From the IMG/VR virus record IMGVR_UViG_2585427767_000007: a stretch of DNA of 34,558 nt. One strand, 5' to 3'. The notes under the pieces were generated by a model that was given only the letters and a program-made list of their open reading frames with translations, made no database searches and was not told where the DNA came from. Shown here in pieces: positions 3,238 to 33,119 of the stretch. Position numbers and translations under genes: made by a program. Each line of letters begins with the position of its first letter. Within the stretch, counting starts at the first letter, position 1. Origin of the DNA: a virus. Lineage: Duplodnaviria > Heunggongvirae > Uroviricota > Caudoviricetes > Peduoviridae.

Positions 3238-3512
3238 GTATTCGTATTGAAATTGGCGAACGTTATGTCGTTACCAGTGACAGCTTTCAGTTTATTCTCC
3301 ACGAGAAAAAGAGAGCGGAAAGCGGTAAAAACGCCGGTCAGGAATGGCTGGCGGTGGTTGGTTATTATCCGAAATTAAGCCAGCTCGTTTCCGGCCTGAT
3401 GCATCACGATATTCTGACCGGAAGCGCAAAATCTTTTGCCGATTTAAACACGCAGGTTGAGCAGCTCAGCAAGCGTTGTTCAGAGGCGTTCTCCAGAGGA
3501 GCGTCTGAATGA
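3234..3512 (+). CDS. Hypothetical early protein (92 aa)
   Basis: ATG 3234 with GGAGAAC upstream; stop overlaps the start of the next gene. Confidence 0.6.
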   Translation: MSIRIEIGERYVVTSDSFQFILHEKKRAESGKNAGQEWLAVVGYYPKLSQLVSGLMHHDILTGSAKSFADLNTQVEQLSKRCSEAFSRGASE

Positions 3513-4516
3513 TTACTGATGCTCGTTGCCATACTGAAAATACCATCAATGTTATTTTTGTTTCAGGTGGAAAGGACAGCCTTGCTCAGTGGCTTGTCGC
3601 TATTGAAGAAAATGTACCCATATTGCCGGTTTTTGCTGATACGGGACATGAACATCCACAGACAATGAAATATCTGGATTATCTGGAAAAACGGCTTGGC
3701 CCAATTAAAAGGGTCAGGGCTGATTTTTCCTGCCGGATTGAATCAAAGCGCAAGTTTATCCAGACCAAATGGCCTGATTTGTTGGTTAACGATTGTGGAA
3801 TGTCGGAAGAAGAAGCGCACCAGCGCATCAGTTGTGCGCTGGAAATTCTCAAACCAACGGGTATCCCGTTTCTTGATTTGTGTCTGTGGAAGGGGCGTTT
3901 CCCATCAACCAAAGCCAGATTTTGCACATTTGAACTGAAACATGAACCCGTGCGTTCTCAGGTAATCCTGCCTTTACTCAATGAATTTGAGGAAGTGATT
4001 AGCTGGCAGGGAGTGCGTGCTCAGGAATCGCCATCACGCGCAGCTTTACCTGTCTGGGAAGAGGATGCAGACAACACCCCCGGATTGCATGTATATCGCC
4101 CGATTTTGCACTGGAAGCATGAAGATGTATTTGCAATAGCCAGAAGACATGACATTAAGCCAAATCCGTTATATCTGCAGGGGTGTGGCCGTGTTGGTTG
4201 TATGCCATGTATTCATGTCCGTAAATCTGAACTGGCAGAAATTTTTCGCCGGTGGCCGGAGGAAATAAAGCGGGTTGCTGAATGGGAACGACTGGTTGCG
4301 TCGTGCTCCCGTCGGGGAAATTCCACTTTTTTCCCATCCACACATGATCCGTTACGCGCAGAACGTCGTATTGAGGTTGTAACAGTCGAGGCATACGGAA
4401 TTGAAACCTACCATGACTGGACAATGACAACGCGTGGGGGTACTCAGTTTGATTTACTGGCTTCGGCGAATGATAAAGCCGTTTGCAGTAGTGTCTATGC
4501 CGGTGTATGTGAATGA
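3509..4516 (+). CDS. PAPS-reductase-like PP-loop protein (phosphoadenosine phosphosulfate reductase family)
   Basis: N-terminal VIFVSGGKDS PP-loop (SGGxDS) motif and C-terminal cysteine cluster (GCGRVGCMPC). Translationally coupled to the downstream gpA gene (ATGA overlap at 4513-4516). Confidence 0.75.
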   Translation: MITDARCHTENTINVIFVSGGKDSLAQWLVAIEENVPILPVFADTGHEHPQTMKYLDYLEKRLGPIKRVRADFSCRIESKRKFIQTKWPDLLVNDCGMSEEEAHQRISCALEILKPTGIPFLDLCLWKGRFPSTKARFCTFELKHEPVRSQVILPLLNEFEEVISWQGVRAQESPSRAALPVWEEDADNTPGLHVYRPILHWKHEDVFAIARRHDIKPNPLYLQGCGRVGCMPCIHVRKSELAEIFRRWPEEIKRVAEWERLVASCSRRGNSTFFPSTHDPLRAERRIEVVTVEAYGIETYHDWTMTTRGGTQFDLLASANDKAVCSSVYAGVCE

Positions 4517-6804
4517 GTCATTCTTTCCAGGAGCAATACACCTGCGTACCTCCGTCTGCGTTTGCCGCAGGCACCGGTAAGGCGTTTACCGGTGCTTATG
4601 CATGGAATACGCCACGCGAGGCTGTCGGGCGCGAAAGACCCCTTACACGTGACGAGATGCGTCAGGTGCAAGGTGTTTTATCCACGATTAACCGCCTGCC
4701 TTACTTTTTGCGCTCGCTGTTTACTTCACGTTATGACTACATACGGCGCAATAAAAGCCCGCTACACGGGTTTTATTTCCTCACATCCACTTTTCAGCGT
4801 CGTTTATGGCCGCGCATTGAGCGTGTGAATCAGCGCCATGAAATGAACACCGACGCGTCGTTACTGTTTCTGGCAGAGCGTGACCACTATGCGCGCCTGC
4901 CGGGAATGAATGACAAGGAGCTGAAAAAGTTTGCTGCCCGTATCTCATCGCAGCTTTTCATGATGTATGAGGAACTCAGCGATGCCTGGGTGGATGCGCA
5001 TGGCGAAAAAGAATCGCTGTTTACGGATGAGGCGCAGGCTCACCTCTATGGTCATGTTGCTGGCGCTGCACGTGCTTTCAATGTTTCCCCTCTCTACTGG
5101 AAAAAATACCGTAAAGGGCAGATGACCACGAGGCAGGCATATTCTGCCATTGCCCGTCTGTTTAACGATGAGTGGTGGATTAGTCAGCTTAAAGGCCAGC
5201 GTATGCGCTGGCATGAGGCGTTACTGATTGCTGTCGGGGAGGTCAATAAAGACCGTTCTCCTTATGCCAGTAAACATGCCATTCGTGATGTGCGTGCACG
5301 CCGCCAGGCAAATCTGGAGTTTCTTAAATCGTGTGACCTTGAAAACAGGGAAACCGGCGAGCGCATCGACCTTATCAGTAAGGTGATGGGCAGTATTTCT
5401 AATCCTGAAATTCGCCGGATGGAGCTGATGAACACCATTGCCGGTATTGAGCGTTACGCTGCAGCAGAGGGTGATGTGGGGATGTTTATCACGCTGACCG
5501 CGCCGTCAAAGTATCACCCGACACGTCAGGTCGGAAAAGGCGAAAGTAAAACCGTCCAGCTAAATCACGGCTGGAACGATGAGGCATTTAATCCAAAGGA
5601 TGCGCAGCGTTATCTCTGCCGTATCTGGAGCCTGATGCGCACGGCATTCAAGGATAATGATTTACAGGTCTACGGTTTGCGTGTCGTCGAGCCACACCAC
5701 GACGGAACGCCGCACTGGCATATGATGCTTTTTTGTAATCCGCGCCAGCGTAACCAGATTATTGAAATCATGCGTCGCTATGCGCTCAAAGAGGATGGCG
5801 ACGAAAGAGGAGCCGCGCGAAACCGTTTTCAGGCAAAACACCTTAACCGGGGCGGTGCTGCGGGGTATATCGCGAAATACATCTCAAAAAACATCGACGG
5901 CTATGCACTGGATGGTCAGCTCGATAACGATACCGGCAGACCTCTGAAAGATACTGCCGCGGCTGTTACTGCATGGGCGTCAACGTGGCGCATCCCGCAA
6001 TTTAAAACGGTTGGTCTGCCGACAATGGGGGCTTACCGTGAACTACGCAAATTGCCGCGCGGCGTCAGCATTGCTGATGAGTTTGACGAGCGCGTCGAGG
6101 CTGCACGCGCCGCCGCAGACAGTGGTGATTTTGCGTTGTATATCAGCGCGCAGGGTGGGGCAAATGTCCCGCGCGATTGTCAGACTGTCAGGGTTGCCCG
6201 TAGCCCGTCGGATGAAGTTAACGAGTACGAGGAAGAAGTCGAGAGAGTGGTCGGCATTTACGCGCCGCATCTCGGCGCGCGTCATATTCATATCACCAGA
6301 ACGACGGACTGGCGCATTGTTCCGAAAGTTCCGGTCGTTGAGCCTTTGACTTTAAAAAGCGGCATCGCCGCGCCTCGGAGTCCTGTCAATAACTGTGGAA
6401 AACTCACCGGTGGTGATACTTCGTTACCGGCTCCCACACCTTCAGAGCACGCCGCAGCAGTGCTTAATCTGGTTGATGACGGTGTTATCGAATGGAATGA
6501 CCAGGAGGTCGTGAAGGCGCTAAGGGGCGCATTAAAACACGGACTGAGAACACCAAATCGTCAGCAAAGAGCCGGAAGCCCGTTAAAACCGCATGAAATA
6601 GCGCCATCGGCCAGAATGACCCGGTCGGAACGAATGCAAATTACCCGTATCCGCGTTGACCTTGCTCAGAACGGTATCAGGCCGCAGCGATGGGTGCTTG
6701 AGGCGCTGGCGCGTGGCGCGACCGTAAATTATGACGGGAAAAAATTCACGTATCCGGTCGCTGATGAGTGGCCGGGATTCTCAACAGTAATGGAGTGGAA
6801 ATGA
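4513..6804 (+). CDS. A: Rolling-circle replication initiation endonuclease gpA
   Basis: 763-aa ORF. HUH motif (PHWHMMLF) and downstream tyrosine pair region (YIAKYISKNIDGY) characteristic of P2 gpA-type relaxase/initiators. Size close to remembered P2 gpA. Confidence 0.9.
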   Translation: MSHSFQEQYTCVPPSAFAAGTGKAFTGAYAWNTPREAVGRERPLTRDEMRQVQGVLSTINRLPYFLRSLFTSRYDYIRRNKSPLHGFYFLTSTFQRRLWPRIERVNQRHEMNTDASLLFLAERDHYARLPGMNDKELKKFAARISSQLFMMYEELSDAWVDAHGEKESLFTDEAQAHLYGHVAGAARAFNVSPLYWKKYRKGQMTTRQAYSAIARLFNDEWWISQLKGQRMRWHEALLIAVGEVNKDRSPYASKHAIRDVRARRQANLEFLKSCDLENRETGERIDLISKVMGSISNPEIRRMELMNTIAGIERYAAAEGDVGMFITLTAPSKYHPTRQVGKGESKTVQLNHGWNDEAFNPKDAQRYLCRIWSLMRTAFKDNDLQVYGLRVVEPHHDGTPHWHMMLFCNPRQRNQIIEIMRRYALKEDGDERGAARNRFQAKHLNRGGAAGYIAKYISKNIDGYALDGQLDNDTGRPLKDTAAAVTAWASTWRIPQFKTVGLPTMGAYRELRKLPRGVSIADEFDERVEAARAAADSGDFALYISAQGGANVPRDCQTVRVARSPSDEVNEYEEEVERVVGIYAPHLGARHIHITRTTDWRIVPKVPVVEPLTLKSGIAAPRSPVNNCGKLTGGDTSLPAPTPSEHAAAVLNLVDDGVIEWNDQEVVKALRGALKHGLRTPNRQQRAGSPLKPHEIAPSARMTRSERMQITRIRVDLAQNGIRPQRWVLEALARGATVNYDGKKFTYPVADEWPGFSTVMEWK

Positions 6805-7043
6805 TGGCAAAAATTCACGAGGTAAAGCTGCACGCAAAATATTTCGACCTTGTGCTGGAAGGAAAGAAACGTGCGGAGTTTCGGAAAAATGACCGTAATT
6901 ATGAGTACGGAGACACGTTGATTTTGCATGAATGGGTTCAGGATGTGTATACGGGGCGAAAGGTTGAAGCCCGGATAACGGATGTTACGGACCTGTCAGA
7001 CTGGCTGGAGGATTATGTTTTGTTAAGTATTCAAGTGTGTTGA
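6801..7043 (+). CDS. Small ASCH/DUF3850-like protein (80 aa)
   Basis: ATG 6801 overlaps the gpA stop, with GGAG 5 nt upstream. Sequence (KIHEVKLHAKYFDLVLEGKKRAEFRKNDRNYEYGDTLILHEW) resembles the small beta-barrel ASCH-like family often found after gpA; family assignment is from memory. Confidence 0.55.
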   Translation: MMAKIHEVKLHAKYFDLVLEGKKRAEFRKNDRNYEYGDTLILHEWVQDVYTGRKVEARITDVTDLSDWLEDYVLLSIQVC

Positions 7044-7329
7044 AAATGTATGCGGTATGTATGGAAAACCGCACCATAACGAGAAAAATATCCAGTATGA
7101 ATCTGCTTAGATTAATAGATCGCAGAAGAGAGAAGAGGTATTGAGCCATGATGCCAATTTGTGAGATACCGAAGTGTTATGACAAAGATGCTTTTAATGT
7201 TACATTCCGTCATTACTCTTATTAATCATCTATTTCAATAGATTAGGATTAATCTGGCTATGTCATTGAAGATGCTCGATGTCTCGATATTTCTTAGCTA
7301 AAATAGGAGGCACTAAGGGAGAGGATGTT

Positions 7330-8388
7330 ATGTCTAAAATTTATGCTATTGACCTTTTTTGTGGTGCAGGTGGATTAACCCATGGTTTGATACAAGCAGG
7401 GATTGGTGTCATTGCTGGTATTGATTTAGATCCAGATTGCAGATGGGCGTATGAGCACAACAACAAAGCTAAATATATAAATTCAGATATTTGTGATGTA
7501 ACAGGTCAAGACCTTATGCGCTTGTGGCCAGAACAGGGAATAAGACTTCTTGCTGGTTGCGCCCCATGTCAGCCTTTTTCAAGTTATCGAAAAGGCAAGA
7601 TTGAATCTGCTGACGGCAAATGGAAACTCTTAGGTGAATTTGGACGGCTAGTCAAAGAATCTTCACCAGACTTGATAACCATGGAAAACGTACCAAGGTT
7701 ACAAAAGCATAAAATTTTCTTGGATTTTGTTAAAGACCTTAAGAAAGGTGGGTATAAGGTCTGGTATGGCGTCGTTGACTGTCAACAATATGGTGTGCCT
7801 CAGAAAAGGCAGCGATTAGTTTTACTGGCATCCAAGATCAGTGATGTTGTGTTGATTCCTCCAACACATTCAGAAGATAACTACGTAACAGTGAAAGATG
7901 CTATTTCTCATTTGCCAGAGATAGATTCAGGGCAAGCTGATGAGAAAGATCCATTACACGTTGCTCAGGGAATGAGCCAATTAAATCTCGAAAGGATTCG
8001 TCAATCAAAACCAGGTGGAACATGGAAGGATTGGGATCCTGAGTTGGTTGCTGCGTGCCATAAGAAAAGTAGTGGCAAAACTTACACAAGTGTATATGGA
8101 CGGATGAGATGGGATGAACCAGCTCCTACAATGACAACCCTATGTTTTGGTTTTGGTAATGGACGTTTTGGGCATCCTCAACAGGATAGGGCCATTTCTT
8201 TACGTGAGGCAGCTATCTTTCAAAGTTTTCCGGAGAACTATGTTTTTTCTGAACCAGGTGCAAAGATCACATTTGCAACAGTTGGTCGCTTGATTGGTAA
8301 TGCCGTTCCGGTAAAACTAGGTGAAGTTGTAGGAAAATCATTTATTAATAGTCTATCTGGGGGTAGTAGGAGAAATGGCGGAGCATAG
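7330..8388 (+). CDS. DNA (cytosine-5)-methyltransferase, Dcm-type
   Basis: Canonical C5-MTase motifs in canonical order: motif I FCGAGG (IDLFCGAGGLTHGL), motif IV PCQPFS (catalytic Cys), motif VI ENV, motif VIII QKRQR, motif X GNAV. ATG 7330 with GGGAGAGG Shine-Dalgarno; the track start at 7279 is a longer upstream extension. Lower GC than the phage backbone. Confidence 0.9.
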   Translation: MSKIYAIDLFCGAGGLTHGLIQAGIGVIAGIDLDPDCRWAYEHNNKAKYINSDICDVTGQDLMRLWPEQGIRLLAGCAPCQPFSSYRKGKIESADGKWKLLGEFGRLVKESSPDLITMENVPRLQKHKIFLDFVKDLKKGGYKVWYGVVDCQQYGVPQKRQRLVLLASKISDVVLIPPTHSEDNYVTVKDAISHLPEIDSGQADEKDPLHVAQGMSQLNLERIRQSKPGGTWKDWDPELVAACHKKSSGKTYTSVYGRMRWDEPAPTMTTLCFGFGNGRFGHPQQDRAISLREAAIFQSFPENYVFSEPGAKITFATVGRLIGNAVPVKLGEVVGKSFINSLSGGSRRNGGA

Positions 8389-10372
8389 CGAAGTTTTATC
8401 GCATGTTGATGAAAAAACACATACTTATGAGATGCTGGTTAGCTTGAGTGTTCTGGGGCATCTGGGGATCAATCTATATAGCAATGTTGCGGCAGTGATT
8501 ACGGAAACAGTAGCTAATGCATGGGATGCAGATGCTACAGAAGTGCATATAAAACTTTCTCCTGACAGAATCACTATTTCGGATAATGGTTTTGGAATGA
8601 CCATTCATGATATGAATTCGAAATATCTAACAGTTGGCTATCAAAAAAGAAATGATAAAAGCCAGCTATTAACTCCCAAGGGACGACTACCCATGGGCAG
8701 AAAAGGTATTGGTAAGTTATCTTTATTTTCTATTGCAAAAACTGTAACGGTTGAATCAATCAAGGATGGAGAACGACATGGTTTAGTTATGGAAGTTCCA
8801 AAAATAGAGCATGCAATCAAAAGTGGGGCTGGTAGATATTATCCAGAACCTTTGGATTCTGCTCAACTTTCTGTGAGTCAAGGAACATTAGTAACATTGC
8901 GTGATCTAAATCGATCTCGCATACCTGCCACTGCAACCGCTTTGCGTAAAAAGTTAGCAAGGCGTTTTTCTGTTATTGGTAGTAATGATTTTAGGGTCTT
9001 CGTTGATGGTGTAGAAGTAACAGCAAAGGAACGTGAGGACCTAAAACATGTTCAGTTCGTATGGGATATTAACTCGGGGGTAGATTTTAAAAAAGAATGT
9101 CCGGGGTTAATAACTGTAACTGACATTTCATCATTTTTGACAGAAAGTCAATTATTTAATCCTGAATGGAGCATTAAAGGGTGGATTGGTAGTATAAAAC
9201 AGCCTAGTCAGTTGAATACACCTGAAGGAAATCTAAATAGCATTGTTGTTTTATCTAGAGGTCGATTGTTTCAAGAGAACATTTTAGATGATATAAACGA
9301 TGGTGGGATATACACAAAGTATCTTACAGGGCAACTTGAGGCAGACTTCCTTGATACAGATGAAGATGAAGATATTGCAACAAGTGATAGACAACGAGTT
9401 GTTGAAGATGACCCTCGTTATCAATATTTGAAATCATTGGTTAAGATTGCCCTGAGAAAGGTTGCTGGTCAATGGAGCTCACTACGAGAAAAGCAAGGAG
9501 CAAAGGAAGCTAAAGAATCGAATCCGGTACTTGCGGAGTGGATCGGTTCATTAAAACCTGCTTCCCGAGGCTATGCAGAAAAAATGATCGCTCAAATTGA
9601 ATCGTTGCCTTTGGAGGATAAACCACAAGAGAAGAAGGAACTCTTTAAGCATGCAATTTTTGCATTTGAGCGCTTGCGTATTAAGGAAATGTCGCAGGAG
9701 CTAGCTGATGCTGTATTTTTTAATGCAGAAAAATTATTGCCATTGCTTGAGAAACAAGACGATTTAGAGGCAACATTATATTATGAGATAGCTAAGAGTC
9801 GTGTAGATGTTATTCAAAGCTTCAAAGGCCTAGTCGATAACGATGAAAAAGAAAAAGTATTGCAACGTTATCTTTTTGAACACCTTTGGTTATTAGACCC
9901 ATCATGGGAAAGAATTGATGGTTCTCCAATAATGGAGTCGCGTGTTAACCAAGAGTGGGACAAGATTGATGCTGGCCTGAGTGAAGAAGAGAAGAAAGGT
10001 CGTATGGATATAAAATATCGCTCATCTGCAGGTAAGCATATTATCATTGAACTTAAGAGAGCTAGCGTATTGACTTCTGTTGCAAATCTAGTCAGTCAGG
10101 GGAATAAGTACAGGCAGGCAGTAATTAAGTGTGCAAAAGCTGTTGACCCGGCCTCAACACCATCAATTGATGTGATTTTTGTCCTTGGTCGAGAGCCATC
10201 AGATTATGCGTTAGACCCATCTTATACTAACCTTCAGCTACAGTCAGTGAATGGTCGGATTGTTTATTATGATGGGCTAATTAATAGCGCACAGAGCTCG
10301 TATAGAGAATATACAGAGAGGCAGGCTACTGTTGCAAGGATTGCTGAAATCGTTAAAAAACTAGATGACTAG
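8375..10372 (+). CDS. GHKL/HATPase_c-type ATPase (665 aa) with C-terminal PD-(D/E)xK-like nuclease motif; candidate restriction/defence effector
   Basis: Bergerat-fold motifs near the N-terminus: N-box ETVANAWDA (ExxxNAxDA), G1 box DNGFGM, G2 box GRKGIGKLS. C-terminal region has D...ExK pattern (GRMDIKY...HIIIELKR). ATG 8375 overlaps the MTase stop by 14 nt with AGGAG upstream. Low GC. Confidence 0.8.
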   Translation: MAEHSEVLSHVDEKTHTYEMLVSLSVLGHLGINLYSNVAAVITETVANAWDADATEVHIKLSPDRITISDNGFGMTIHDMNSKYLTVGYQKRNDKSQLLTPKGRLPMGRKGIGKLSLFSIAKTVTVESIKDGERHGLVMEVPKIEHAIKSGAGRYYPEPLDSAQLSVSQGTLVTLRDLNRSRIPATATALRKKLARRFSVIGSNDFRVFVDGVEVTAKEREDLKHVQFVWDINSGVDFKKECPGLITVTDISSFLTESQLFNPEWSIKGWIGSIKQPSQLNTPEGNLNSIVVLSRGRLFQENILDDINDGGIYTKYLTGQLEADFLDTDEDEDIATSDRQRVVEDDPRYQYLKSLVKIALRKVAGQWSSLREKQGAKEAKESNPVLAEWIGSLKPASRGYAEKMIAQIESLPLEDKPQEKKELFKHAIFAFERLRIKEMSQELADAVFFNAEKLLPLLEKQDDLEATLYYEIAKSRVDVIQSFKGLVDNDEKEKVLQRYLFEHLWLLDPSWERIDGSPIMESRVNQEWDKIDAGLSEEEKKGRMDIKYRSSAGKHIIIELKRASVLTSVANLVSQGNKYRQAVIKCAKAVDPASTPSIDVIFVLGREPSDYALDPSYTNLQLQSVNGRIVYYDGLINSAQSSYREYTERQATVARIAEIVKKLDD

Positions 10373-10443: not shown

Positions 10444-10468
10444 GGCCCGTCAGAATTGGCGGGCTTTT
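10444..10468 (+). terminator. Possible intrinsic terminator after the cargo operon
   Basis: GCCCG ... CGGGC stem followed by TTTT, about 70 nt after the ATPase stop. Stem is short and the loop long, so weak. Confidence 0.35.
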
Positions 10469-10513: not shown

Positions 10514-10532
10514 GGCGAGGCGGGGAAAGCAC
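10514..10532. other. Candidate cos site (19-nt cohesive-end sequence of P2-type phages)
   Basis: GGCGAGGCGGGGAAAGCAC matches my recollection of the P2 cohesive end, and lies where cos is expected in a P2 prophage (between the old/tin-position cargo and the 3' end of Q). Confidence 0.55.
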
Positions 10533-10701: not shown

Positions 10702-11736
10702 TCAGCCGTTGTCAGTGTCCAGTGAGTAGTTTTTAAAGCGGATGACCTCCTGACCGAGCCAGCCGTTTATTTCCCGAATCCTGTCCTGTAGCGGGATAAG
10801 TTCATTGCGGACAAAGACCTTTGCCACTTTCTCAATATCACCCAGAGACCCGACGTTCTCCGGCTTGCCGCCCATCAACTGAAAGGGGATGCGGTGTGCG
10901 TCCAGCAGGTCAGCGGCGCTGGCTTTTTTGATATTAAAAAAATCGTCCTTCGTCGCCACTTCACTGAGCGGGATAATTTTAATGCCGTCGGCTTTCCCCT
11001 GTGGGGCATAGAGAAACAGGTTTTTAAAGTTATTGCGGCCTTTCGACTTCACCATGTTTTCGCGAAGCATTTCGATATCGTTGCGGTCCTGCACGGCATC
11101 GGTGACGTACATGATGTATCCGGCATGCGCGCCGTTTTCGTAATACTTGCGGCGGAACAGCGTGGCCGACTCATTCAGCCAGGCAGAGTTAAGGGCGCTG
11201 AGATATTCCGGCAGGCCGTACAGCTCCTGATTAATATCCGGCTCCAGCAGGTGAAACACGGAACCGGGCGCGAAAGGTGTCGGCTCGTTGAAGGACGGCA
11301 CCCACCAGTAAACATCCTCCTCCACGCCACGGCGGGGATATTTTGCCGGGGAGGTTTCCAGTCTGATGATCTTACCGGTGGTGCTGTAACGCTTTTCCAG
11401 AAACGCATTACCGAACACCAGAAAATCCAGCACAAAGCGGCTGAAATCCTGTTGCGAAAGCCACGGATGCGGGATAAATGTCGAGGCCAGAATATTGCGT
11501 TTAACGTAAATCGGTGAGCTGTGATGCACGGCAGCACGCAGGCTTTTCGCCAGACCGGTAAAGCTGACCGGCGGCTCATACCATCTGCCGTTACTGATGC
11601 ACTCGACGTAATCCAGAATGTCACGGCGGTCGAGTACCGGCACCGGCTCACCAAAGGTGAATGCCTCCATTTTCGGGGCGCTGGCGGTCATTTTTTTTGC
11701 CGCAGGTTGCGGTGTTTTCCCTTTTTTCTTGCTCAT
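10702..11736 (-). CDS. Q: Portal protein gpQ
   Basis: 344-aa minus-strand ORF at the canonical position next to cos; matches remembered P2 gpQ size. Start ATG overlaps the terminase stop by 1 nt. Confidence 0.9.
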   Translation of the reverse strand: MSKKKGKTPQPAAKKMTASAPKMEAFTFGEPVPVLDRRDILDYVECISNGRWYEPPVSFTGLAKSLRAAVHHSSPIYVKRNILASTFIPHPWLSQQDFSRFVLDFLVFGNAFLEKRYSTTGKIIRLETSPAKYPRRGVEEDVYWWVPSFNEPTPFAPGSVFHLLEPDINQELYGLPEYLSALNSAWLNESATLFRRKYYENGAHAGYIMYVTDAVQDRNDIEMLRENMVKSKGRNNFKNLFLYAPQGKADGIKIIPLSEVATKDDFFNIKKASAADLLDAHRIPFQLMGGKPENVGSLGDIEKVAKVFVRNELIPLQDRIREINGWLGQEVIRFKNYSLDTDNG

Positions 11737-13508
11737 CAGTAAAACTCCAGAATGGTGGATGTCAGCGGGGTGCTGATACCGGCGGTGAGTGGCTCATTTA
11801 ACAGGGCGTGCATGGTCGCCCAGGCGAGGTCGGCGTGGCTGGCTTCCTCGCTGCGGCTGGCCTCATAAGTGGCGCTGCGTCCGCTGCTGGTCATGGTCTT
11901 GCGGATAGCCATAAACGAGCTGGTGATGTCGGTGGCGCTGACGTCATATTCCAGACAGCCACGGCGGATGACGTCTTTTGCCTTGAGCACCATTGCGGTT
12001 TTCATTTCCGGCGTGTAGCGGATATCGCGCGCGGCGGGATAGAACGAGCGCACGAGCTGGAACACGCCGACACCGAGGCCGGTGGCATCAATACCGATGT
12101 ATTCGACGTTGTATTTTTCGGTGAGTTTGCGGATGGATTCCGCCTGAGTGGCAAAGTCCATGCCTTTCCACTGGTGACGCTCAAGTATTCTGAATTTGCC
12201 ACCGGCCACCACCGGCGGTGCCAGTACCACGCATCCGGCGCTGTCGCCACGGTGTGACGGGTCGTAACCAATCCAGACCGGGCGGGAGCCGAACGGATTG
12301 GCGGCAAACGGCGCATAGTCTTCCCATTCTTCCAGCGTGTCGACCATGCAGCGTTGCAGCTCCTCGAACGGGAACACCGACGCCTTGTCGTCAACAAATT
12401 CACACATGAACAGGTTTTTAAAATCGTCGGCGCTGTTTTCGCGTTTGAGCTGTTCAATGTCGAACAGCGTGCAGCCACCTTTCAGGGCGTCCTCAATGGT
12501 GACAATCTGCCGCCACTGGCCGTCCGCACAGAGAAGCCCACCGGCAAGGGCGTTATGACTGACGTCGATTTCCACGCGTTCGGCGGCGCTGGCGCGTCCC
12601 CGGTTGAACAGTTCACCTGACCAGAACGGGTAGGCGTCGTGCGCCAGCGTGGACGGGGTGGAGAAATAGGTCGAGCGCAGGTGACTCTGTGAGGCCATAC
12701 CTGATGCCACCTTACGCAGTACCTGAAAATTCGGGATCCAGAAAATCTCGTCGACGTACAGGTCGCCGTTATGGCTCTGTGCGGTGTTGGAGTTGGTGCC
12801 GAGAAAAATCAGTTTTGCGCCGTTATTGCCCAGGACAATCGGGTCACCGGTCAGGTCAACGTCAACCAGCCGGGCAAAGGCGATGATGTATTCGCGGAAC
12901 ACATACGCCTGCGTTTTACTGGCCGACAGAAAAATCTGGTTATGGCCGGTTTTCAGGGCGCGCAGCAGCGCCTCGCGGGAAAAATAAAACGTCGCGCCAA
13001 TCTGGCGGGATTTCAGGATATCGCGGATGCGGTGCTCAAGCCCGGCGCGATACCAGTGCAACTGATAGTCGAAAGACTGCTCAAAGAAAATCTGCTCCAG
13101 CTTTTCGATGGCCTCGTCACTGAAAAAATTTTTTTTCGGTTTGCGCCGCCCGCCTTTGTTGCGGTTAGCGACGTTCGGATTAAGGTCTGCCTCGTTGCCG
13201 GTCTGGCTGTAACGATTTACCCGTGCCAGTCGTTCAATCTGGCGTCCCAGCAGGTCAATTTCCTTGAAGTCACCGCCGGTTTTCTGCGGTTTGATGATGA
13301 GCTGGGTCAGCCGCGCTTCCAGGCTCATTTCGACACGGCTGATGGGGGCAACATTGTCCCAGCCGTCGCGCTGTTTCCAGCTCTGCACTGTCGGGCGTTT
13401 CATCTGCAACATGGCGGCAATCTGCGGCACGGAAAATCCCTGCCAGTACAGCAGCGCCGCCTGACGACGCGGGTCGTGTAAAAGAGTGGTGTCTGTGGTG
13501 ATGGTCAT
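11736..13508 (-). CDS. P: Terminase large (ATPase) subunit gpP
   Basis: Minus-strand ORF. The track start at 13538 is a TTG; the in-frame ATG at 13506-13508 (MTITTDTTLL...) gives 590 aa, matching remembered P2 gpP size. Confidence 0.9.
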   Translation of the reverse strand: MTITTDTTLLHDPRRQAALLYWQGFSVPQIAAMLQMKRPTVQSWKQRDGWDNVAPISRVEMSLEARLTQLIIKPQKTGGDFKEIDLLGRQIERLARVNRYSQTGNEADLNPNVANRNKGGRRKPKKNFFSDEAIEKLEQIFFEQSFDYQLHWYRAGLEHRIRDILKSRQIGATFYFSREALLRALKTGHNQIFLSASKTQAYVFREYIIAFARLVDVDLTGDPIVLGNNGAKLIFLGTNSNTAQSHNGDLYVDEIFWIPNFQVLRKVASGMASQSHLRSTYFSTPSTLAHDAYPFWSGELFNRGRASAAERVEIDVSHNALAGGLLCADGQWRQIVTIEDALKGGCTLFDIEQLKRENSADDFKNLFMCEFVDDKASVFPFEELQRCMVDTLEEWEDYAPFAANPFGSRPVWIGYDPSHRGDSAGCVVLAPPVVAGGKFRILERHQWKGMDFATQAESIRKLTEKYNVEYIGIDATGLGVGVFQLVRSFYPAARDIRYTPEMKTAMVLKAKDVIRRGCLEYDVSATDITSSFMAIRKTMTSSGRSATYEASRSEEASHADLAWATMHALLNEPLTAGISTPLTSTILEFY

Positions 13509-13681
13509 GAATACCTCGCCGTGATGAATACACGGCAAGGCTACTGAGTCGCGCCCTGCGATTCGCTAAGGTGCTGTTGTGTCAGTGATAAGCCATCCGG
13601 GACTGATGGCGGAGGATGCGCATCGTCGGGAAACTGATGCCGACATGTGACTCCTCTAATCACTATTCAGGACTCCTGACA
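13509..13681. promoter_or_regulatory. Divergent intergenic region between P (leftward) and O (rightward); expected location of Ogr-dependent late promoters
   Basis: In P2 this interval carries the divergent late promoters PP and PO. Here it contains a 5-bp inverted repeat TCAGT-N15-ACTGA (about 13581-13605). I could not find a clean TGT-N12-ACA dyad. Confidence 0.4.
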
Positions 13682-25892: not shown

Positions 25893-26486
25893 ATGTTTAC
25901 TAAGCGACGATTAAAAAATATTAACTGGGAGGCAAGTTCAGTGATTCTTGCTATGGTTCTCTTTGTTGGAAATATATTTTATACAAATCATCGTGATGAT
26001 ATAAGCATGGAGGCTGAGAGGGACAGTATCAGAACAATGTTTGCATATGAAATCGCTAATAACCATCGCGCTCTCACTTTTCTTGATAAAACGAGACATA
26101 TTGGCTTTGACGAAAATTCGGAGCATTTTGTTGGCGAGCCTTTTGCCATTAATGTCAAATCATTAGGGGGGCCTCGCTTACAGATTGCATTAAACCAGAC
26201 TGATAAAGTGTTTAAATCCTACTTCAGCGAATTAAGTAAGCTTGGTAAAGAGGATGTTACTCTTCTTATGGACTATTACCATGAGCAAAGCATCCTGCTG
26301 GAGCGTGTAAAATCTACGTTACAGAAGATGAAAAGTGGTAATGATATTAAAGTTGATATTGATGGTTACTTATTAGAAGAACACTTCATGAATGAGCTTA
26401 ATCTTTCTAATATTTTGCTTAAACGCTATAGCCATTTGTTGTCACAATACGCTAAAGAACATAAAACAAAAGATTTACATAATTGA
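25893..26486 (+). CDS. AT-rich moron at the P2 Z/fun locus: 197-aa hypothetical protein with N-terminal membrane anchor
   Basis: ATG 25893 with AAGG upstream. Single hydrophobic segment SSVILAMVLFVGNIF near the N-terminus. Markedly lower GC than the flanking tail genes; followed by a strong terminator. Confidence 0.65.
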   Translation: MFTKRRLKNINWEASSVILAMVLFVGNIFYTNHRDDISMEAERDSIRTMFAYEIANNHRALTFLDKTRHIGFDENSEHFVGEPFAINVKSLGGPRLQIALNQTDKVFKSYFSELSKLGKEDVTLLMDYYHEQSILLERVKSTLQKMKSGNDIKVDIDGYLLEEHFMNELNLSNILLKRYSHLLSQYAKEHKTKDLHN

Positions 26487-31476: not shown

Positions 31477-31956
31477 ATGATGCTCGCGTTAGGTATGTTT
31501 GTTTTTATGCGCCAGACGCTGCCACACCAGACCATGCAGCGTGAATCAGATTATCGCTGGCCGTCAAATTCCCGTATCGGTAAACGGGATGCCTACCAGT
31601 TTCTCGGCGTTGGCGAGGAAAACATCACGCTTGCCGGTGTGCTTTATCCCGAACTGACCGGCGGAAAGCTGACGATGACCACGCTCAGGCTGATGGCAGA
31701 GGAAGGCCGGGCGTGGCCGTTGCTGGATGGCACTGGCATGATTTACGGCATGTATGTCATCAGCAGGGTGAGTGAAACAGGGAGTATTTTCTTTGCAGAC
31801 GGCACACCCCGGAAAATTGATTTTACGCTGTCGCTCACCCGCGTTGATGAATCACTGGCCGCGCTTTATGGCGATATCGGTAAACAGACGGAATCGCTCA
31901 TCGGTAAAGCTGGCAGTATGGCGACCAGATTCACGGGTATGACGGGGGCGGCATAA
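31477..31956 (+). CDS. U: Tail protein gpU
   Basis: 159 aa, AAGGAGG Shine-Dalgarno upstream; matches P2 gpU. Confidence 0.85.
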   Translation: MMLALGMFVFMRQTLPHQTMQRESDYRWPSNSRIGKRDAYQFLGVGEENITLAGVLYPELTGGKLTMTTLRLMAEEGRAWPLLDGTGMIYGMYVISRVSETGSIFFADGTPRKIDFTLSLTRVDESLAALYGDIGKQTESLIGKAGSMATRFTGMTGAA

Positions 31957-33119
31957 TGCTGGATGCACTGACATTTGATGCAGGCAGTACGCTGACGCCG
32001 GATTACATGCTGATGCTCGACAGCAGGGATATTACCGGCAATATCAGCGACCGTCTGATGAGTATGACCCTGACGGATAACCGGGGCTTTGAGGCTGACC
32101 AGCTTGATATTGAACTGAACGATGCCGACGGGCAGGTCGGGCTGCCGGTTCGTGGCGCTGTCCTGACGGTGTATATCGGCTGGAAAGGTTTTGCCCTGGT
32201 ATGCAAAGGGAAATTCACCGTTGATGAGGTTGAACACCGGGGCGCGCCGGATGTGGTCACCATCCGCGCCCGGAGTGCAGATTTCCGCGGGACGCTCAAT
32301 TCCCGCCGGGAAGGCTCCTGGCATGACACCACGCTCGGTGCAATTGTTGAGGCGATAGCCTCCCGTAACAGGCTGGAAGCCAGTGTCGCTCCGTCACTGG
32401 CCGGAATTAAAATCCCGCACATCGACCAGTCGCAGGAGTCTGATGCGAAATTCCTGACCCGTCTTGCAGAACGCAACGGCGGTGAGGTGTCGGTAAAAAT
32501 GGGAAAACTGTTGTTTCTCAAAGCGGGGCAGGGGGTGACGGCCAGTGGTAAAAAAATCCCGCAGATTACCATCACCCGCAGTGACGGCGACCGCCATCAT
32601 TTTGCGATTGCTGACCGTGGAGCCTATACCGGCGTAACAGCAAAGTGGTTACACACCAAAGACCCGAAACCGCAAAAGCAGAAGGTAAAACTGAAACGCA
32701 AAAAGAAAGAAAAACACCTGCGCGCACTGGAGCACCCGAAAGCGAAACCGGTCAGGCAGAAGAAAGCGCCTAAAGTACCGGAAGCGCGCGAAGGTGAATA
32801 CATGGCCGGTGAGGCTGATAACGTTTTTGCCCTGACCACGGTATATGCCACGAAAGCGCAGGCCATGCGCGCCGCTCAGGCGAAGTGGGATAAACTGCAA
32901 CGGGGTGTTGCGGAGTTCTCCATCAGCCTGGCTACCGGTCGGGCAGATATTTACACGGAAACACCGGTTAAAGTGTCAGGCTTTAAGCGCGTCATAGACG
33001 AGCAGGACTGGACAATCACTAAGGTGACACATTTTCTGAATAATAGCGGCTTCACGACGTCCTTGGAGCTTGAGGTCAGGCTTTCTGATGTGGAGTACGA
33101 AACAGAAGATGATGAGTGA
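31956..33119 (+). CDS. D: Tail protein gpD
   Basis: 387 aa, start overlapping the U stop; matches P2 gpD. Confidence 0.85.
   Translation: MLDALTFDAGSTLTPDYMLMLDSRDITGNISDRLMSMTLTDNRGFEADQLDIELNDADGQVGLPVRGAVLTVYIGWKGFALVCKGKFTVDEVEHRGAPDVVTIRARSADFRGTLNSRREGSWHDTTLGAIVEAIASRNRLEASVAPSLAGIKIPHIDQSQESDAKFLTRLAERNGGEVSVKMGKLLFLKAGQGVTASGKKIPQITITRSDGDRHHFAIADRGAYTGVTAKWLHTKDPKPQKQKVKLKRKKKEKHLRALEHPKAKPVRQKKAPKVPEAREGEYMAGEADNVFALTTVYATKAQAMRAAQAKWDKLQRGVAEFSISLATGRADIYTETPVKVSGFKRVIDEQDWTITKVTHFLNNSGFTTSLELEVRLSDVEYETEDDE

Follow-up and report, generated by a model that had tools for sequence, protein, structure and literature searches.

The 34,558-nucleotide stretch of DNA analysed here (the window; IMG/VR virus record IMGVR_UViG_2585427767_000007, Peduoviridae) is a nearly complete P2-like prophage of Escherichia coli that carries two overlapping genes at positions 7330-8388 and 8375-10372. 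Most likely, these genes form a two-gene Type II restriction-modification operon, carried as defence cargo in a hotspot of the prophage, whose nuclease would be an ATP-gated GHKL clamp. The upstream gene encodes a 352 amino acid C5 cytosine DNA methyltransferase (M), and the downstream gene, which starts with an ATG codon, encodes a 665 amino acid restriction endonuclease (R). R starts with a GHKL (Bergerat) ATPase domain and a middle domain, which a helical linker connects to a probable nuclease domain of the PD-(D/E)xK type at the C-terminus. Both genes, like the truncated DUF3850 gene, the hairpin and the presumed cos sequence described below, lie on the plus strand. R is a member of a family of restriction enzymes that had already been catalogued as BbrUII/HgiDII, and its name, architecture and niche were all known earlier.

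R matches the NCBIfam equivalog model NF050001.1 ('BbrUII/HgiDII family restriction enzyme') with 785.3 bits against a curated cutoff of 550, and the match runs end-to-end with residues 18-663 aligned to positions 1-659 of the 659-position profile. The Type II restriction endonuclease model of PADLOC, REase_II, also detects the protein (1.3e-94), and RefSeq holds an identical protein, WP_001538235.1, which bears the family name and is encoded beside a 'DNA cytosine methyltransferase'. A first-pass annotation of this DNA had proposed that R is a restriction component, and this proposal is borne out by the full-length, above-cutoff family membership, by the PADLOC class and by a pairing of M and R that is kept from E. 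coli to a haloarchaeon. The protein shares its domain order with the family, which includes R.HgiDII of Herpetosiphon (GTCGAC), and likewise adjoins a C5 methyltransferase homologous to the M.HgiDII-type family. It differs in its vehicle, which here is the hotspot of an E. coli P2-like prophage, and it was placed in the family by means of the profile.

The motifs of R that had been picked out by eye are found at the expected places, namely ETVANAWDA at residues 44-52, DNGFGM at 70-75, GRKGIGKLS at 108-116 and GRMDIKYRSSAGKHIIIELKR at 542-562. In an alignment of 38 sequences, with identities down to 47%, the ATPase residues E44, N48, D70, G72, G74, G108, G111, G113 and G170 are invariant, as are E493, D545, E559, K561, Q575 and Y579 in the C-terminal domain. 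Residue T171 is a threonine in 35 of the 38 and a serine in the other three. With the exception of T171 the GHKL residues, together with D545, are also unchanged in full-length homologs that are only 24-38% identical to R. The motifs are not chance matches, because they are invariant among the 38 homologs and coincide with a Pfam HATPase_c_3 match.

The GHKL ATPase domain spans residues ~18-200 (positions 8426-8974) and was delineated by Pfam, by its invariant motifs and by Foldseek. It combines a Bergerat fold with all four motifs of the superfamily (ExxxNxxD, DxGxG, GxxGxG and GT), which are represented by E44/N48 in motif I, D70xGxG74 in motif II, G108xxGxG113 in motif III and G170-T171 in motif IV. 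The HATPase_c_3 match covers residues 38-145 (E = 3.7e-17; 63 bits against a cutoff of 25 bits). When a full-length AlphaFold2 model of R with a mean predicted local distance difference test (pLDDT) score of 77.6 was compared by Foldseek, it matched TRAP1/Hsp90 (E ~1e-12), MORC2 (1e-10) and the N-terminal domain of MutL (5e-10). The alignments to Hsp90, TRAP1, MORC2 and MutL cover about 400-480 columns, those to Hsp90, TRAP1 and MORC2 span 430-480 and extend past the ATP-binding domain, and therefore the ATPase is accompanied by a middle/transducer domain. The Bergerat ATPase claimed for the N-terminus is thus upheld by Pfam and NCBIfam GHKL models and by the Hsp90, MORC2 and MutL folds returned in the structural comparison, while the label 'Walker-like' that had been given to the N-box has to be dropped, the N-box being a GHKL/Bergerat motif instead. 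The middle (S5/transducer-like) domain at residues ~201-345 (positions 8975-9409) is defined by the span of the Foldseek alignments, by its beta-rich model and by invariant columns, which include the segment T336-S-D-R-Q-R341. It is connected to the nuclease domain by a helical linker at residues ~346-485 (positions 9410-9829), delimited by the secondary structure and pLDDT of the AlphaFold2 model. This linker is the least conserved region of the protein, with a per-region conservation of 41% compared to 48-56% elsewhere, and the model is poor at residues 440-470.

The C-terminal nuclease domain at residues ~486-665 (positions 9830-10369) was recognised by an invariant motif pattern. The catalytic pattern of PD-(D/E)xK enzymes, which consists of a glutamate on a helix, an aspartate on strand 2, an ExK on strand 3 and an optional glutamine, is present in all 38 sequences as E493 (motif I), D545 (motif II), E559/K561 (motif III) and Q575 (motif IV, plus Y579). 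The C-terminal 206 residues were also modelled separately (pLDDT 83), and in the predicted models D545 begins one strand of a hairpin and E559/K561 end the next. The order E493...D545...E559-x-K561...Q575 parallels motifs I-IV of Shedu, which are E204, D249, E264/K266 and Q295, and the closest structural match of the domain is SduA of Bacillus cereus. The Pfam family SduA_C is matched below threshold (E <= 1) by 14 of 21 homologs, with a best E-value of 9e-5, and other homologs match NucS_C or PDDEXK families. A HMMER profile of the domain searched against 1.84 billion representatives matched 799 cluster representatives. The PD-(D/E)xK motif that the first-pass annotation had suspected in GRMDIKYRSSAGKHIIIELKR survives testing, with fold evidence of moderate strength, and the domain is assigned with moderate confidence to a PD-(D/E)xK nuclease of the Shedu/NucS kind that is not a member of the Pfam-defined DUF4263 family. 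In R.HgiDII the N-terminal domain has been assigned to GHKL and the C-terminal domain left unassigned (Orlowski and Bujnicki 2008); its catalytic residues can now be named, and it joins the PD-(D/E)xK enzymes of the Shedu/NucS branch with the same moderate confidence. A further segment, W505-L-L-D-P-x-W-E-R513 (positions 9887-9913), is invariant and is located between nuclease motifs I and II, in the region that corresponds to the regulatory 'motif II loop' of B. cereus Shedu.

The M subunit at positions 7330-8388 was identified by Pfam (DNA_methylase, E = 1.3e-55), by the PADLOC models MTase_II and DrmMII and by RefSeq. The longest open reading frame (ORF) would place its start at position 7279; the ATG at 7330 is the most likely start, as it is preceded by the Shine-Dalgarno-like GGGAGAGGA and equals the start given by RefSeq. 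R had been described as lying directly downstream of a C5 methyltransferase gene, and the linkage is closer still, with the stop of M and the start of R overlapping by 14 nucleotides (8375-8388). An adjacent C5 methyltransferase is what is expected of a BbrUII/HgiDII system, and M was assigned as such by family. M.HgiDII is an experimentally characterised 5-methylcytosine (m5C) methyltransferase for GTCGAC (PMC5867850), and this sequence is probably also the recognition site of the operon in the window, judging from its membership of the HgiDII family. M.BbrUII has been described as an N6-adenine methylase (PMC5829577) and as a 5mC methylase homologous to M.HgiDII (PMC5867850); the C5 methyltransferases that partner members of the BbrUII/HgiDII family fit the latter assignment. 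A Type IV (methylation-dependent) activity of R was considered and rejected, since an enzyme of that kind would kill its own host in the presence of a neighbouring, active C5 methyltransferase from the cognate family.

The pairing of M and R is conserved in a wide range of genomes. A C5 methyltransferase gene is located immediately upstream of the R gene, and overlaps or abuts it, for each of the full-length homologs from Campylobacter (25% identity), Pantoea (26%) and an archaeon, Halobaculum (38%). In Dyella the order is R, Vsr, M, in a metagenomic genome it is M, Vsr, R, and in a P2-like prophage of Burkholderia gladioli (CP045573.1, 2430-5920) M, R and Vsr are located beside portal/terminase genes, with an R that is 61% identical. 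Two isolated P2-like phages, PhiR44_1 and Yersinia phage P37, carry divergent versions of M and R in the hotspot between gpA and gpQ. They were found by a search at the protein level; at the nucleotide level, comparison of the cassette with isolated phages by megablast picked up the conserved flank only. The PhiR44_1 genes (4022-7070 of its locus) are annotated as 'Dcm' and 'ParaMORC3' and encode an M that is 56% and an R that is 37% identical, the latter scoring 751 bits on NF050001. In P37 (1932-4977 of its locus) M is 39% and R 29% identical, and this R scores 329 bits on NF050001, which is below the cutoff. The two subunits co-diverge, with M/R identities of 60/48% in Dyella, 56/37% in PhiR44_1 and 39/29% in P37, and on these identities M is the more conserved of the two, as is usual for restriction-modification pairs. 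In P2-like phages from three genera, the hotspot near the portal gene holds divergent pairs of M and GHKL nuclease, which suggests that the module has been exchanged there repeatedly. Since the module (R at 29-37% identity) recurs in the hotspot next to cos in several P2-like phages, it lends itself readily to asking whether such restriction enzymes need ATP hydrolysis.

The position of the operon in the window is that of hotspot cargo. The prophage encodes an integrase (1-1011), gpA (4513-6804), portal and terminase proteins (10702-13538), tail proteins and gpD (31956-33119), and a cation-efflux gene of the host follows gpD. The cassette is located between the Phage_GPA gene and the portal gene (10702-11736), and thus in the interval between gpA and gpQ, next to cos, that is a defence hotspot of P2 (Rousset et al. 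2022). Its guanine-cytosine (GC) content of 36-43% contrasts with 50-58% in the backbone. Among 5,426 complete E. coli genomes, 2,074 have matches to the flanks and just seven contain the cassette. The cassette therefore shares with the known cargo of P2-like phages (old/tin in P2; Rousset et al. 2022) its location between gpA and portal beside cos, a foreign GC content and variation between prophages that are nearly identical elsewhere, and differs in holding a classical restriction-modification pair where old/tin, retrons and similar systems are found in others. It is cargo of an already described defence hotspot and was most likely acquired horizontally. In one of the seven carriers, E. coli NZ_OY754453.1, an IS2 element has inserted into the nuclease gene and the methylase gene is intact; loss of the nuclease with retention of the methylase is the usual path by which restriction-modification systems decay toward an orphan methylase.

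The architecture of R is that of paraMORC3, a group in which a GHKL domain and an S5/middle domain precede a restriction-endonuclease fold that bears E-D-ExK residues at the C-terminus, found in neighbourhoods with DCM and Vsr (Iyer, Abhiman and Aravind 2008). The likeness was established by architecture and neighbourhoods; the PhiR44_1 homolog that its depositors labelled 'ParaMORC3' is at the same time above the NF050001 cutoff. Many of the nuclease-bearing paraMORC3 genes stand alone (Iyer et al. 2008), whereas the gene in the window is tightly operonic with its methyltransferase. A second relative is VcSduA, a fusion of GHKL and DUF4263 nuclease referred to as paraMORC3 or Shedu type I-D, for which Gu et al. 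describe the same architecture. In both VcSduA and R, a GHKL domain is combined with a middle domain like that of Hsp90/MORC and with a PD-(D/E)xK domain resembling that of Shedu (Gu et al. 2023/2025; Adams et al. 2025), with the catalytic glutamate and lysine at nearly the same positions (E27 and K557 in VcSduA, E44 and K561 in R). Published mutants of VcSduA in the motif I glutamate (E27A) and in the ExK lysine (K557A) both lose anti-phage defence. The two proteins differ in that VcSduA works without a methylase while R has a cognate-looking one, and R stays below the thresholds of both the Pfam SduA_C and the PADLOC SduA models. It is a tentative idea, and one that we would not yet favour, that a single kind of nuclease machine, a GHKL clamp gated by ATP, may underlie the HgiDII/BbrUII enzymes, paraMORC3 and the methylase-less VcSduA alike. 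If so, the cue that separates self from non-self could be provided by a cognate m5C methylase, as would be the case here, or by something else. In that case the operon of the P2-like prophage would offer a model, tractable in E. coli, for the licensing of a Shedu-type nuclease by a Bergerat ATPase, and for how restriction-modification and 'innate' nuclease defences interconvert.

The most likely mechanism for the operon is that M methylates C5 of cytosine in the target site on host and prophage DNA, which would include the three GTCGAC sites of the prophage itself. Binding of ATP would dimerise the N-terminal domains of R, as in other GHKL enzymes, and the middle domains may then close as a clamp around the DNA. 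Closure of the clamp would license the two C-terminal nuclease domains, each with a predicted active site of E493, D545, E559, K561 and Q575, to cut the unmethylated target in the DNA of incoming phages and so confer an anti-phage phenotype. Hydrolysis of ATP, with E44 as the putative base and N48 holding the Mg2+ ion, would reset the enzyme. A role for ATP is inferred here from the strict conservation of the GHKL residues and from the phenotype of the VcSduA E27A mutant.

Several observations weigh against this reading. With regard to the nuclease, a Foldseek search of the C-terminal model against the Protein Data Bank (PDB) gave a best E-value of 0.027 and no match at E <= 1e-3, PD-(D/E)xK proteins appearing only among the insignificant ones, and a HMMER profile of the domain searched against PDB sequences returned only noise (superoxide dismutase, mKate). 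Pfam SduA_C (PF14082/DUF4263) scores 14.4 bits on R (E = 0.044) and does not reach its gathering threshold of 27, Pfam scans of more distant homologs gave no SduA_C match above threshold, and the SduA model of PADLOC gives E = 0.0047 for R with no passing stretch. The best 150 of the 799 cluster representatives matched by the domain profile have either the same architecture of ~650 amino acids with the domain at the C-terminus or are shorter, probably partial proteins, and none forms a bridge to canonical Shedu. The predicted models also contain only two strands before the alpha-2 helix, where the canonical alpha-beta-beta-beta-alpha-beta core has three. The fold call is only moderate because Foldseek and profile searches lack significant matches, SduA_C remains below threshold and only two strands are seen. 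With regard to methylation, the window holds three GTCGAC sites compared to 7.7 +/- 2.9 expected, which is not a significant depletion. One member of the family has an MmeI-like enzyme on one side, a helicase on the other and no C5 methyltransferase nearby, and another has Vsr as its only such neighbour and no adjacent C5 methyltransferase; control by methylation is consequently not universal in the family. A third member adjoins an unrelated C5 methyltransferase. With regard to ATP, classical restriction enzyme assays contain none, and it was such assays that revealed HgiDII and BbrII to be iso- or neoschizomers of SalI. The 2008 classification assigns R.HgiDII to subtype P, the orthodox enzymes (Orlowski and Bujnicki 2008). 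In the literature searched, no report was found that R, a close homolog of R or any Type II enzyme with a GHKL domain depends on ATP.

These points on ATP favour an alternative in which R is an orthodox, ATP-independent Type IIP enzyme whose GHKL domain acts as a scaffold for dimerisation or for clamping DNA, or binds nucleotide without needing to hydrolyse it. In that case 'ATP-driven', as R had been called in the first-pass annotation, would be wrong and the assignment to restriction-modification would still be right. We consider this rather unlikely: the residues for binding and hydrolysis of ATP are invariant in the 38 homologs, T171 aside, and the same residues persist at 24-38% identity, as would hardly be expected unless catalysis were under selection, and VcSduA with the same architecture loses defence upon replacement of the motif I glutamate by alanine. 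The resemblance to VcSduA can also be turned into a different argument, namely that R is a stand-alone nuclease of the Shedu type I-D kind which recognises infection by a different signal, for example DNA ends or proteins of the phage, next to an independent methyltransferase, for instance an anti-restriction methylase of the phage. VcSduA acts alone, the nuclease domain of R finds its best structural match in Shedu, the two family members that lack an adjacent C5 methyltransferase are above or close to the NF050001 cutoff, and many Shedu genes are merely embedded in restriction-modification loci (Gu et al.). A stand-alone role is nevertheless decidedly unlikely because the M-R operon is conserved and overlapping, not only in the window but also, by overlap or abutment, in Pantoea, Campylobacter and Halobaculum. 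Moreover, M and R co-diverge and are often accompanied by Vsr, and NCBIfam and PADLOC both class R as a Type II restriction enzyme with just the sub-threshold E-value given above for PADLOC SduA.

The frequent presence of Vsr next to the pair in other genomes would also suit an accessory or repair ATPase of the MutL type, which acts with Vsr and Dcm in very-short-patch repair and not as a defence nuclease, and the analogy to MutL and Vsr has been pointed out before (Iyer et al. 2008). The N-terminus of R does match NCBIfam MutL models, but with only 15-32 bits against cutoffs of 180-840, and the C-terminal domain of MutL is absent. Given in addition that the cassette is without Vsr, that it is located in a phage defence hotspot and that R is a full-length member of a restriction enzyme equivalog, a role in repair is extremely improbable.

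The boundaries of the cassette can be read from the flanking sequence. On the left a truncated DUF3850/ASCH gene is located at positions 6768-7043 (Pfam DUF3850, 4.2e-18), which RefSeq lists as a pseudogene missing its C-terminus, and the GC content drops from ~51% to ~36% exactly at this gene. Recombination on the left side of the cargo probably took place at this truncated gene, whose counterpart at the equivalent place in Yersinia phage P37 is an intact ASCH gene (985-1440 of its locus). On the right a hairpin, GCCCG...CGGGC followed by TTTT, was read from the sequence at positions 10445-10468, ~75 nucleotides past the stop codon of R. It might conceivably serve as the terminator of the operon; a terminator scan did not report it. 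Still further downstream, at positions 10514-10532 and ~140 nucleotides past the R stop codon, the sequence reads GGCGAGGCGGGGAAAGCAC, which we take to be the 19-nucleotide cohesive-end (cos) sequence of P2 and the right edge of the hotspot. On that assumption the cassette abuts cos, as is described for the hotspots of P2 and P4.

Two other genes of the prophage are worth recording. An ORF of 197 amino acids (25893-26486) is located between the tail-fibre assembly and tail sheath genes at Z/fun, the position of a second variable locus in P2. Pfam gives no match for this ORF, which belongs with phrog_3829 (unknown function) and could be another accessory or defence gene. Just upstream of gpA a protein of the PAPS-reductase family (3509-4516), which is conserved in this prophage lineage, is weakly similar to the SspD, BrxP and DndC models of PADLOC (E = 3e-21 to 1e-7).

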